Shown: piece after piece, positions 30,901 to 36,900 of the stretch
How positions within the stretch are numbered: the first letter of the stretch is position 1
Layout of the letters: each line of letters opens with the position of its first letter
From: a virus
Length of the DNA: 44,690 nucleotides
Reading direction: 5' to 3' (one strand)
UHGV virus genome: UHGV-0128395
Made by a program: the position numbers

Positions 30901-33900
30901 TTGGGCCAGAAAAGGCGTTTGCTGTTCAGGACAAGATAGCTGGTCGTGAGATTGACCGAGGTAGGCTGGCAGAGACAATCCGCAGCAATCAGGCTGGAGA
31001 AGCACTTCAGGCGAGAGGGCAAAACCTTTCCTATCAGTCAGCAATGACTGGACACAATATCGCAGCACAACGCTTGGCTCTGGATCAGCAAGAGTTCGGG
31101 TTTAAGATGCAGCAAGCACAGGAAAAGGCTCAGCAGTTGATTAGCGAAGCACCTAAGCTGTCAGTAAACATGGAAAAAGGCATCGAGACGGCTGTAAACA
31201 ATGCTACAGCATCATCAAACTCAGCCAATTCCATGAGTGCGCTTGCTCAACAGTTCAGAGCAGAAAAACCAACGACAGGTTTGTTCGGTAACGCACAGAA
31301 CATGTTCGCAAAACTTACCGGAAGCGATACAACATTGCGTGATTTGCGCATCCGCCAAAATGCCCTTGTTAACAGTCAGGTTCTTAAATTCCTACCTCCC
31401 GGCCCCGCAACGGATAAAGACGTTGAGATCGTTCGGCAGGGTGCACCAACTGACATGGATAACCCTGAGACGGTCGCAAGATGGCTTGATGCGATGGCAA
31501 ACCTTGAGCGACGAAACGCGCAGTTTAATGAGTTTAAAGCCGAGTGGATGAGCGCGAATGGCAATCCAGGACAATCGCGTAATGGCGGTCAGATATTGGG
31601 GTTGGATGTTAAAAAAGGTGAATCATTGGGGAGTGCCGTTAAGCGGTATATGTCAATGAATACTGACGCAGCGCCAGCACAAGATTCGACACCTTCAGGA
31701 GAACCACGGAATCAGGTTGGATCATATACCTCAAAATCAGGCATTCAATTTACGGTGGAATGATGAAAGTAACTGCAAACGGTAAGACATTTACCTTTCC
31801 TGATGGTACGAGCACCGAAGATATTGGCACCGCCATTGATGAGTATTTTGCTGGTCAGGCTGTTCAGCAACAAACAGTTAATCAGGCCAATAATGCACCA
31901 ACACGGGAAGAACCATCATTGATGCAACAAGCTGGTGATTGGCTCACAGGTGGTCAAAGTGCAGGGCAAATTGCAGAACAGGCTGGTCGTGGTCTGGTAA
32001 ACATACCATTTGACGTATTGCAGGGTGGCGCAAGTCTGATTAATGCAATCAGCCAGGGGCTTGGTGGCCCCAAGGTTTTGGATGATGTTTATCGCCCTGT
32101 CGAGCGACCGACAGACCCTTATGCGCAAGCTGGAGAAACAATTGGCGGGTATTTAGTTCCAGGAGTTGGAACGGCAGGAAGCATGGCTATTGGATCACTG
32201 GCAGAGGCCGCAAATCAGAAAGGCGATTTCGCACAAAATGCAGCTAAAAATGCCGGAGTTAACCTTGCCGCTCAGGGTGTTCTTTCCGCAGCAGCAAAGG
32301 GAATAGGGCGTGGAATAACGGCTATAAAAGGTGATATTGCGCCAGAAGTGGCGAAGAAAATTGCCACATCAGAATCGATGGGCGTGACACCAATGACATC
32401 TGATGTTATCCCGCCGAAAAATGCTTTCACTCGCGGACTTACTCAGGATGCTGAGGGGGCTTTGCTCGGGACAGGCTCAAAGCGAGCTGAGCAATATGCA
32501 ACGCGTAGTAAGCTGGTAAGCAATTATTTTGACCGTTTTGGTGAGTACAACCCTGATGATGTGGTGAAATCTCTTACCACCACGTTAAGGGGGCGGAAGG
32601 ATGCCGCTGGCGCTGTTATCAATGACGTCACCAATAAAATGGGTAATGCCGCAGTTGATACCACAAATACCATGAATGCTCTGAATACAGCGATCGCAAG
32701 ACAGGAACGGCTTGGGACGTCTGCCAATCAAAGCCTGCTTACATCCTTGCGTAACCTGCGTGAAGAATTAGCAAACCCTGCAACTGATTTGGATGTTACG
32801 TTTGATCTCTTGCGTCAGCACAGAACAGCATTTAGATCTAATGTTCAGGGAGATGCTATGGTCTTCCCCAACCAGGCAAAAGCAGCTACCAATATGGTAG
32901 AGAATGCAATGTCAAAAGACCTTCGTAACGCAGTTGCAAAAAACCTCGGTGCGTCAGACGCAGCAAAATACCTTAAAGCAAATTCCGATTATGCAAACGT
33001 TTATAATAAGGTGCTTAATAAAAACATTGCTAACAAGCTCAACAAGGCAAGCAGTGAAGCCAGTCCTGAACTTATAAATACTGTTGTATTAAGCAGAAAA
33101 CCATCTGACGTGAAACGAATCTGGAGCGCATTGGATGATAAAGGGAAAGATGCTATGCGTGCAGCTTACGTCAGCAAAATAGCGGAAAAGGCCGGGGACT
33201 CTCCAGCCAAGTTCATCACTGAAGTTAATAAGCTGAAATCTCAGTCAGGCGGTGAAATTTACAACACTATTTTTTCTGGAAAGCACATGAAAGAGCTTGA
33301 TGCTCTTCATGAAGTTCTACAGCAAACAGCAAGGTCAGACACCGCAAATGTAGTAACTCAGACGGGGCAATCGCAAGCCAACAGGATAAGGACGATTGGC
33401 GCAACTGCGACCCTTGGCGTATCAATGGGGCTTGAGGCTGGTTTTGGTGCAATGATGCGCTTGTATGAGTCCAAAGCAGCAAGGAATGCTCTCTTACGTC
33501 TGGCAAACACTAAAGCTGGAACGCCAGCCTATGAAAGAGCGTTGAGTAACGCTGCAAATGCCATCAGGCCGCTGCTTGCTACTGAGGCAACACAGCAGTA
33601 ACGTATGGGAAATTGGATTCAATCGCTAACATTTTCTTTTTACTTTTCCAACAAAAGCTTTGGTTGAATCCATATTTCCATAACCGGAAATGGTTTTTGA
33701 CATTAAAACTGTTCCAGTAGGATGTATTACCCATGAGTCGATAACGCGTTGAGTTTCGCCATTCGCGCCGATTCCTATGATGGAGTTTTTAGACAATGCT
33801 TTGTAAGCCATGCCGCCCGCATCTGTCCCAGAATATGTGATGCTGGCATCTTCACCGTTTGTCTTAATGATGAATGTTCCACTAAAACCATCTTCTTCCG

Positions 33901-36900
33901 GATGGAAATTATTTCGTTCTGAATAGCTTATTCCGCGCATATCTCCAACGACCCAGCACTCTGCTGTAGCCCCAAAAGATATGAATAAGAACATAGCAGT
34001 AAGAAATTGCTTCACACCAACCTCCTTAGTTTTGCGCAGGATACCATGAAAAAAGTTAACATTGGAAACGTACCAAAGATGCTCGTTCCGCTCTTTGAGA
34101 GCGGTACAATTGTGTTTTGTAGAGACTTTCCAGAATGGCAACGCCTGCATCAAAAACTTGGCGTTGACGTGCATGACTCGGACGCCAACGGAGCGTCTCA
34201 TACAATGAGTAGCGAGAATGGTGTTTTGCATGTGATAGGCGTGTTCAATGGCAAACTATCTACTATTGCCCATGAGTGCGCTCATATGGCATTCGATATC
34301 TGCTCAAGGGTAGGTGTTGATGTTGAACCAGGAAGAGCCAACGAGACTTACTGCTACTTAATGAGCAGGCTTGTTGAGTTCTGCGAGCGACATATCAGAA
34401 AGCCGGAGTGACCCGGCTTGATTATTACTTTTTGCTGTCTGGAGTTCGCTTATCCAATACCCAGCCATGACCTGGCTTTGTTGTTGGTGGAAGCCTTTCG
34501 TTGTCCTTGACGGTTGCAAAATTGTCTTTCTTACCGCCGCGTGGGCCAACTTCTTGGTATATTCCGCCGTTTTTTCCTGTGTTTTCACCTGGTTTTTTCG
34601 CCATGATATACCTCAACATACACCCGTTATTGGGCGATTAAATATTGATCTCATTTTGTAAGTAGTCAATATGGCCCAGGTAAATGCAAAAATTAACCCA
34701 CCTTCAGGTGGGTTTTTTGTACAAATCCTTCAGCGTATCAAACACCATCTTCTTAACAAGCTCTGACTGCTCATCAGCGATGCGTTCCGCATCGTCTCGA
34801 TAGCCTGAAATTTTGGATGGCTTTGATACAGCATCAGTCACTATCTGAACTAATTCTGAATTAAGAGAGCGGCCATTGGATTTGGCTCGCTGTTTTAGTT
34901 TTTCCTTTAATTCGTAAGGTAGCCGCAGATTAAATTGCGGGTCATCTCTTCCCATTCTTGATGCCTCGCTTTTGTGAGTGGATCGGCATCTTATTATCTG
35001 CTGGTTGCATCCTCAATAAGACCACAGTGGTCTCTTTGTTTGATTAATAATGCATCACTGTGGCAATGCTGCGGCGATTCCTTGTATCTGGAGCAAATTA
35101 AATGACAGACATTACAGCCAATGTTGTAGTGAGTATGCCTTCGCAACTCTTCACTATGGCGCGTTCTTTTAAAGCCGTAGCCAATGGCAAAATTTATATC
35201 GGTAAAATTGACACTGACCCGGTAAATCCTGAAAACCAGATTCAGGTTTATGTAGAGAACGAAGACGGTTCTCACATTCCTGTTTCGCAACCAATAATGA
35301 TTAACGCTGCTGGATATCCGGTATATAACGGACAGATTGCCAAATTCGTAACCGTGCAAGGCCATTCTATGGCTGTTTATGATGCGTATGGTACACAGCA
35401 GTTCTATTTTCCTAATGTGCTGAAGTATGATCCTGATCAGTTACGGCAGCAATTAGAAGACCCAGATGGAGCGAATAAATACCCAAAACTTCAGATAGCA
35501 AGATGGAGAGACAGTTATGATGTAAGAGGTTGGGGGGCTATTGGTGATGGTGTTCATGATGATACATCAGCTCTATCAGAATTACTTTCTGTTGCAACAG
35601 GTGGTGAAAAGATAGATGGGCGAGGGCTTACTTTTAAAGTATCAACTCTTCCAGATGTCAGTCGATTTAAAAATGCTCGTTTTTTATTTGAGAGAATACC
35701 GGGTCAGCCTCTTTTTTATGCTTCTGAAGATTTTATCCAGGGAGAGTTATTTAAAATTACAGATACACCGTGGTACAACGCCTGGACGCAGGATAAAACG
35801 TTTGTATATGACAATGTCATCTATGCGCCTTTTATGGCTGGAGACCGCCATGGTGTAAATAACCTCCATGTTGCATGGGTTCGCTCAGGAGATGACGGGA
35901 AGACCTGGACAACGCCGGAATGGCTTACAGATTTACATGAAAACTATCCCACAGTTAACTATCACTGCATGAGTATGGGGGTTGTCAGAAATCGCCTTTT
36001 TGCTGTAATTGAGACGCGGACCGTGAGCGGAAATAAACTGCAGGTTGCAGAGTTGTGGGATCGCCCAATGAGTCGCAGCCTTCGCGTTTATGGTGGTATA
36101 ACGAAAGCAGCAAATCAGCAAGTCGCTTATATTCGCATTACTGATCACGGATTATTTGCTGGTGATTTTGTCAACTTCTCAAACTCTGGTGTTACAGGTG
36201 TTACCGGGAATATGACGGTGACTACTGTTATTGATAAAAATACTTTTACAGTTACGACGCAAAATACCCAGGATGTGGATCAGAATAACGAGGGTAGATA
36301 CTGGAGTTTTGGTACATCATTTCACTCGTCACCATGGAGAAAAACCAGTCTTGGAACTATTCCTTCTTTTGTTGACGGAAGCACTCCTGTTACTGAGATT
36401 CACAGTTTTGCGACGATTAGCGATAACAGTTTTGCTGTTGGCTACCATAATGGTGATATTGATCCACGCGAGCTTGGGATACTCTATTTCTCTGATGCTT
36501 TCGGTTCTCCTGGTAGCTTTGTTCGCAGACGCATACCTGTAGAATATGAGGCGAATGCATCTGAGCCATGTGTAAAATATTATGATGGCATTCTGTATCT
36601 GACGACCAGGGGGACATTAAGTACTCAACCCGGTAGTTCATTGCACAGAAGCTCTGATTTAGGTACATCATGGAATTCTCTTCGCTTCCCAAATAATGTT
36701 CATCACTCAAACCTTCCTTTTGCCAAAGTTGGCGATGAGCTGATTATTTTTGGCAGTGAGCGCGCATTTGGTGAGTGGGAAGGAGGAGAACCTGATAACC
36801 GTTATGCAGGAAATTATCCAAGAACATTTATGACCAGAGTTAACGTCAATGAGTGGAGTCTGGATAATGTAGAGTGGGTTAATGTTACTGATCAGATTTA

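Follow-up and report, generated by a model that had tools for sequence, protein, structure and literature searches.

The window analyzed here is a 44,690-nucleotide stretch of viral DNA, UHGV virus genome UHGV-0128395. It is a CUS-3-type, P22-like E. coli prophage, with host genes beyond the integrase. Two of its genes, gene A (8592-8996, minus strand) and gene B (33626-34015, minus strand), encode small proteins that we identify from their sequences as true paralogs and diverged members of the Hex family (PHROG 2651). Gene A is the hex gene of phage 434, as judged by protein identity and position, and gene B replaces the coding sequence of the P22 gene sieA exactly, to the codon. The best explanation, which we hold as a whole chain with a probability of a little over one half (about 0.55), is that A and B are prophage-expressed periplasmic barrels acting in envelope superinfection exclusion. 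Export and fold taken alone are held with higher confidence than the whole chain. An exclusion role is proposed because Hex excludes P22, because B has been swapped for the proven exclusion gene sieA, and because the genomic contexts of both genes suit expression in the lysogen.

In the proposed mechanism, A and B would be made as precursors with a Sec-type signal peptide that signal peptidase I cuts before the residues ECW. A soluble protein of ~12 kDa would thereby be freed into the periplasm, in the form of a nine-strand barrel whose end strands are tied by a disulfide between the N- and C-terminal cysteines. Protein A would be translated from the PRM transcript, coupled to the repressor gene cI, and protein B from the inherited and intact sieA promoter. 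In the periplasm, both would interfere with DNA delivery by heterologous phages, P22-like phages above all, and with two diverged copies a wider range of phages would be excluded. That the proteins are periplasmic, that B excludes phages, and which step would be blocked are inferred.

Identity, paralogy, and export signature of A and B

Gene A encodes a 134-residue precursor with a predicted signal peptide at codons 1-18 (8943-8996) and a mature part of 116 residues that starts ECWIV. The protein is 98.5% identical to the product encoded downstream of cI in phage 434 and in lambda imm434, where it is called 'repressor protection protein'. The product of Sf6 gene 38 and the homologs in HK446, HK633, and Sf101 are equally close, and the homolog of phage Huey (PQ850609.1, 25919-26323, locus L023) is 100% identical. 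The 134-residue form is also the one annotated in the phage 434 GenBank record. In the window, the ATG of gene A (8996) and the TGA stop codon of the 434-type cI gene (8993-9625, minus strand; HTH_3 and Peptidase_S24 domains) share the tetranucleotide ATGA (8993-8996), a layout that agrees with the translational coupling to the repressor proposed by the sequence-only reading, the earlier interpretation made without database searches. Few genes are known to share a transcript with a lambdoid repressor, and hex is one of them. Reverse transcription polymerase chain reaction showed that the PRM transcript extends through hex (PMC3564112), which makes likely the expression in the lysogen that had been expected earlier. 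According to the account given in PMC3564112, hex was named by Susskind and Botstein in 1980 for 'heterologous exclusion', since lambda imm434 lysogens of Salmonella exclude P22 and hex mutants do not.

The Huey protein identical to the product of gene A is labeled 'antimicrobial peptide resistance and lipid A acylation protein PagP'. Pfam searches with A, B, and 112 relatives gave no profile support for this label, which appears to be a transfer on fold resemblance.

Gene B encodes a 129-residue precursor that begins at a GTG codon, with a predicted signal peptide at codons 1-18 (33962-34015) and a mature part of 111 residues that starts ECWVV. A and B can be aligned over their full length. 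The precursors share 27% identity by BLASTP (E=1e-11), and the mature parts share 34 identities (~30%) with a Smith-Waterman score of 109, far above the 30.1 +/- 5.7 obtained in 2000 shuffles (maximum 57, z=13.8). Both also match phrog_2651, a group of 'unknown function' (E=1e-58 and 3e-61 for A and B), which is the only match of the gene B product in the PHROG search. The paralogy along the whole mature length at roughly 30% identity, claimed by the sequence-only reading, is thus borne out, and so are the N-termini of ~18 residues resembling signal peptides before ECW and the cysteine pair, as far as sequence features can tell. That no named family was recognized there does not hold up: A is nearly identical to the Hex protein studied in 2013 (PMC3564112), PHROGs groups A with B, and the GenBank record of phage Emek already mentions that the B-type gene resembles Sf6 gene 38. 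The A and B types occur together in no record of the phage collection, and at least six complete E. coli genomes carry A and B ~24 kb apart, as in the window.

Word-indexed homolog searches gave 22 B-type clusters from E. coli and Salmonella and 68 A-type clusters from Enterobacteriaceae, Yersinia, and Aeromonas. An exhaustive profile search (E<=1e-3) enlarged the Hex family to 185 clusters at 50% identity, nearly all of them single-domain proteins of 120-150 residues; a homolog search with a diverse profile gave mostly the same B-type clusters again, and a search for related loci with the closer alignment gave three genome loci. A diverse alignment was built from 112 members, with identities down to ~20%, and in this alignment two cysteines are the sole invariant columns. 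A hydrophobic N-terminal core is found in 111 of the 112 sequences and a lysine or arginine ahead of the core in 110. Small residues stand at -3/-1, within three residues of the conserved cysteine, in 111 members, and the number of mature cysteines is two or four in 111. The residue at -1 is alanine or serine in 52 of 53 close homologs. In A, the predicted cleavage site lies between ANS and ECW, and the mature cysteines occupy positions 2 and 114; in B, it lies between ATA and ECW, with the cysteines at position 2 and at the final residue. Each mature protein has exactly these two. The retention of an export-type signal peptide over otherwise non-conserved sequence, together with an invariant and even set of cysteines, points to a Sec-exported, disulfide-forming periplasmic protein, so that the Hex family as a whole would be exported to the periplasm via signal peptidase I. 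A lipoprotein was considered as well and rejected, because the residue before the cysteine is D, N, E, Q, S, G, or K in the 53 close homologs and there is no lipobox.

Pfam searches with the 112 relatives gave scattered chance matches only, Pfam, NCBIfam, and PADLOC searches with A and B gave none, and a profile search of PDB sequences gave no match. In the B-type cluster P0012, which stands for 642 E. coli sequences, the C-terminus is replaced after approximately residue 105 and the C-terminal cysteine is lost. Several other clusters, with P0016-P0018 and P0020-P0022 noted alongside P0012, are frameshifted or truncated, which suggests that numerous E. coli prophages carry a disrupted gene B.

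AlphaFold2 models of A and B have a mean predicted local distance difference test (pLDDT) score of 87.3 and 89.5, respectively, and share the same topology of nine beta strands. In both models, a low-confidence N-terminal segment is followed by a barrel that starts at residue 19, the predicted first mature residue. The two cysteines are carried by strand 1 (residues 19-32) and by the last strand (120-131 in A, 117-128 in B), as expected if a disulfide between the first and last strands closed the barrel. The model of B is all-beta after an N-terminal helix of 18 residues and has no multi-transmembrane-helix architecture. A and B are thus modeled as a small up-and-down barrel that has no close solved relative: a search of the BFVD viral structures gave no match at E<=1e-3, Foldseek against the PDB gave weak calycin matches only, and PhiA ranks under many generic barrels in the structure comparison.

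The sieA slot and the contexts of relatives

Gene B lies 24 bp past the end of gene 16 (31760-33601, plus strand), which encodes a 613-residue ejection protein (PF26808 in relatives) and is convergent with it. Further upstream of B, on the same strand, lie an orf59a-like gene and mnt. The order in P22 is gene 16 (plus), sieA (minus), the sieA promoter, the mnt terminator, orf59a (minus), and mnt (minus). A block of 91.5% identity to P22 (34013-34955, minus strand), found by blastn, begins with the sieA start codon and takes in the orf59a-like gene and mnt; its edge lies exactly at the GTG of gene B, with no similarity on the B-coding side. In the alignment, 87 of the 88 nucleotides ending with this GTG are identical to the sieA region of P22. 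They include the Shine-Dalgarno sequence AAGGAGG (34021-34027, minus strand; 5 nt upstream of the GTG), which is identical to that of sieA, and the sequence TTGGTACGTTTCCAATGTTAACTTTTTTCAT (34046-34076, minus strand), which is identical to the annotated P22 sieA promoter. The two sequences part at the first base after the start codon. The sieA/immI position assigned to B by the sequence-only reading is thereby resolved to the nucleotide, behind the P22 sieA promoter, Shine-Dalgarno sequence, and GTG. That these three elements are kept intact is the best available evidence that gene B is expressed as sieA is.

RefSeq starts gene B at the ATG at 33994, which gives a protein of 122 residues with an 11-residue N-terminal segment that has no charged residue. 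The GTG at 34015 is taken as the start, and the RefSeq ATG is less likely, because of the N-termini of homologs and the identity to the start region of P22 sieA. A tblastn search of the window with P22 SieA (type A, the sole query) gave no match better than E=0.7 and none at gene B. The possibility that the gene B product is itself a SieA homolog was rejected, given the lack of sequence similarity and the different architecture of the all-beta model. Co-transcription of gene B with mnt in the window was also rejected, since the two genes are separated by a terminator-like hairpin and an opposite-strand open reading frame (ORF) and the window contains the P22 sieA promoter.

This opposite-strand ORF (34046-34411, plus strand) encodes 121 residues with an HExxH motif (AHECAHMAF), matches phrog_1365, and occupies the interval from the sieA promoter to the mnt terminator. 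The 3' end of the annotated sieA promoter, read as its reverse complement, supplies the ATG of this ORF. The P22 counterpart (locus L024, ~1362-1727, plus strand) is intact and ~91% identical; it is unannotated in the P22 RefSeq record, and the ORF is called by RefSeq in E. coli.

The B-type gene is also found in other upstream settings. Orf129 of Salmonella phage Emek and the product of a phage ST-35 gene share ~97% identity with the gene B product. What Emek has in common with the window and P22 upstream of the B-type GTG is limited to the last ~34 nt, including the Shine-Dalgarno sequence. A sieA gene besides B in Emek was rejected: five ORFs lie between B and mnt, all in PHROGs of 'unknown function' and with no exclusion annotation, although they were not compared directly with SieA. 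A strict pairing of B with one type of gene 16 was rejected as well, because the gene 16 product of Emek is 59% identical and its B 97.7% identical, and in the L008-type loci the gene 16 product is 99.5% identical and B 86% identical.

All sampled relatives of A and B lie in prophages or mobile islands, at sites of lysogenic expression. The ATGA overlap with a repressor stop codon recurs in Klebsiella, in Yersinia, and in a distant homolog (loci L005, L012, and L021). The Klebsiella and Yersinia A-type proteins are 47-54% identical to A, and their coupled cI proteins are 84-85% identical to the cI of the window; such faster divergence of Hex than of the coupled repressor is as expected of an arms-race protein. 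The member P0188, from alignment A2, resembles A and B little in pairwise comparison; it is ATGA-coupled to a 121-residue repressor-like protein (phrog_12107, E=4.5e-11) that has no S24 cleavage domain and whose gene is divergent from a YdaS/Cro-like gene. An Aeromonas member stands at the edge of a variable island and adjoins an integrase gene, and a Rahnella member lies between a tail-fiber gene and an integrase gene at the end of a P2-like remnant. The repressor-adjacent position on the PRM transcript is occupied by A and not by B, and it marks the A subgroup rather than the whole Hex family. In Salmonella-type relatives (loci L008-L011), gene B is the third gene of a tight operon after mnt and a Rap1a-like gene, which together form a lysogen-expressed unit.

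The Rap1a-like gene (5650-5985, plus strand, in these four loci) encodes 111 residues with a signal peptide of their own and matches PF18602 (E=1e-14), a family of immunity proteins to type VI amidase effectors. The start codon of the gene and the mnt stop codon overlap as ATGA, and the gene looks like a prophage-borne orphan immunity gene.

Exclusion, repressor protection, and other functions

A literature search on Hex gave no paper besides PMC3564112, in which Hex is proposed to block RecA-stimulated autocleavage of the repressor (PMC3564112). Applied to this prophage, Hex would be a cytoplasmic repressor protection protein that binds 434/P22-type repressors, blocks their autocleavage, and stabilizes lysogeny, and B would be a second stabilizer. 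We consider this unlikely; the only biochemical study of Hex favors it and counts against an envelope exclusion function. Replacement of hex raises spontaneous induction 30-fold, in recA+ cells only, and the cytoplasmic, plasmid-borne form sHex lowers spontaneous induction 7-fold (PMC3564112). Purified sHex inhibits the cleavage of the 434 and P22 repressors and not that of lambda cI or LexA (PMC3564112). The tight ATGA coupling would likewise suit a partner of cI, and an envelope role of A leaves both the recA dependence and the partial in trans complementation to be accounted for. Other points against the exclusion reading concern its own steps: the export of the family is predicted from heuristics and conservation, the modeled fold is a generic barrel that points to no mechanism, neither A nor B has a PADLOC match, and an exclusion role of B deduced from the sieA slot would be guilt by association, as other phages have unrelated accessory genes in this slot between genes 16 and 9.

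The molecular architecture, in turn, bears on how the repressor protection data may be read. The words 'signal', 'membrane', and 'periplasm' are absent from PMC3564112, and export was never considered there. The 158-residue ORF used in that study starts 72 nt inside cI (extension 8997-9068, minus strand). The conserved Hex product is the 134-residue precursor and not this longer ORF, because in homologs the extension is closed by stop codons that precede the ATGA start by 2-6 codons. The N-terminus of sHex, the fragment recovered in that study, is Glu43 of the 158-residue ORF; it is the residue after ANS, the predicted signal-peptidase site, and lends indirect support to export and cleavage. 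Its end at Asn103 corresponds to residue 79 of the precursor, so that sHex covers residues 19-79, or strands 1-5 of the nine predicted, and has no C-terminal cysteine. This fragment was insoluble, was refolded from 4 M guanidine, and was used at micromolar excess (PMC3564112). Overexpressed full-length Hex killed cells, and both the processing and the toxicity were 'puzzling' to the authors (PMC3564112). In the mutant allele, the hex coding sequence was replaced by cat with its own promoter and terminator (PMC3564112). If the 158-residue ORF was the part replaced, the last 72 nt of cI would have been lost; otherwise, the 3' end of the cI mRNA would have been changed.

Taken against repressor protection, then, are a predicted family-wide signal peptide and an invariant cysteine pair that suit the periplasm and not the cytoplasm, an in vitro reagent that would be a refolded partial barrel, a mutant allele that may alter cI or its message, and a 158-residue ORF that is not conserved. 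Gene B adjoins no repressor with an S24 domain, the partner of P0188 lacks this domain, and the Aeromonas and Rahnella members are not beside a repressor at all. The far faster divergence of Hex compared with cI also speaks against it. The evidence from the architecture lowers the cytoplasmic model and does not disprove it.

Exclusion in the envelope, offered as a guess by the sequence-only reading, is preferred for A and B; it is in line with the original P22 exclusion phenotype of Hex and with the sieA swap, and at odds with the published cytoplasmic mechanism. It can be compared with known systems. Gene A is the same gene as 434 hex, in the same place after a 434-type cI and with the same ATGA overlap, and B is a full-length paralog with the same PHROG, signal peptide, cysteine pair, and predicted fold. 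B differs from 434 Hex in being ~27-30% identical, in not lying beside the repressor, and in having the sieA promoter instead of PRM; and an export signal, a disulfide, and a whole barrel are predicted here, in contrast to the published cytoplasmic mechanism. SieA, which resides in the inner membrane and has several predicted transmembrane helices, keeps P22-like phages from delivering their DNA (PMC10883804). Escape mutations map to genes 16 and 20, and sieA is present in only 22 of 66 P22-like phages (PMC10883804). B resembles it in filling exactly the coding position of sieA, in converging on gene 16, which ends 24 bp away, and in having the same promoter, Shine-Dalgarno sequence, and GTG, and it too is predicted to be a prophage-expressed envelope protein. 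Hex, the relative of B, excludes P22, the type of phage that SieA excludes. The difference lies in the proteins themselves: SieA is predicted to span the inner membrane several times (PMC10883804), whereas B is predicted to be a soluble all-beta barrel and has no sequence similarity to it. With lambda RexAB, gene A shares a location downstream of cI on the maintenance transcript and a link to the exclusion of another phage. Rex is a two-protein abortive-infection system, cytoplasmic and inner-membrane, whereas Hex is a single small protein, apparently exported and unrelated in sequence.

A bolder statement, which we put forward tentatively and hold at somewhat less than even odds, is that the Hex family is an unrecognized class of soluble, disulfide-stapled periplasmic exclusion barrels, codon-interchangeable with SieA and blocking the periplasmic DNA delivery of P22-like phages; 'repressor protection' would then be an artifact of a misfolded half-barrel and a polar allele, or a side effect. 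An exported, disulfide-bonded barrel would explain the 'puzzling' toxicity and processing of Hex, and the Hex mechanism needs re-examination. The codon-precise exchange of sieA for a Hex paralog also links two exclusion systems that have been studied separately until now, and B would be a soluble candidate for probing the poorly understood periplasmic step of P22-type DNA delivery. For a family of ~185 clusters that has no Pfam entry and occurs in prophages of Enterobacteriaceae and beyond, this provides a working annotation.

A periplasmic location would also be compatible with A and B being immunity or inhibitor proteins that are not phage-directed and act against envelope-attacking enzymes, such as type VI effectors of the amidase or lysozyme type, colicins, or host lysozyme. 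Inhibitors of this kind are commonly small periplasmic beta proteins with disulfide bonds, which counts for this possibility, as does the Rap1a-like protein with its signal peptide that neighbors B in the operon of Salmonella-type relatives. The Hex family, as predicted here, has in common with Rap1a/Tai4 and MliC/PliC the small size, signal peptide, disulfides, and periplasmic location; it differs in having no sequence or profile match to them, and the structural resemblance is generic, with PhiA placed beneath many unspecific barrels. No MliC/PliC, Rap1a, or other immunity-family Pfam model matched any of the 112 members, no sampled context adjoins type VI secretion or effector genes, and the sole recorded phenotype of the family is phage exclusion. 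An immunity function is thus regarded as improbable, to about the same degree as repressor protection.

Least probable is that A and B are calycin-type ligand-binding or small outer-membrane barrels serving as envelope-remodeling lysogenic conversion or virulence factors: the Huey label and the presence of a porin and NeuO as other envelope-related accessory genes in the same prophage would fit, but the mature proteins have only 111-116 residues with several strands of 4-6 residues, they match no PagP or lipocalin model in Pfam and no profile of the small outer-membrane barrel families (OmpX, OmpW, PagP, and NspA), and they lack the C-terminal aromatic insertion signal, A ending in GTCNQ and B in KRKC.

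Prophage setting and accessory genes

The region upstream of gene B contains the orf59a homolog of P22 (34425-34619, minus strand; YjzC-like), which RefSeq calls at 34425-34604, and the mnt repressor gene (34704-34955, minus strand), which encodes Arc and Repressor_Mnt domains. The terminator-like hairpin after mnt lies at 34695-34714. The other border of the accessory slot between gene 16 and gene 9 is formed by the CUS-3-type endosialidase tailspike gene (35102-38047, plus strand), and the integrase gene is located at 39182-40375.

A complete Gram-negative porin gene of 380 codons lies within the prophage at 15638-16780 (minus strand; Porin_1, E=2e-151), on the strand opposite to its neighbors, and is probably another envelope-altering accessory gene. 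Beyond the tailspike gene, 13.3 perfect tandem copies of TCAAGAC are found at 38204-38296 (plus strand), upstream of a hexapeptide-transferase ORF (38607-38942, plus strand). The heptanucleotide array and this ORF match the phase-variable capsule O-acetyltransferase gene neuO of CUS-3.

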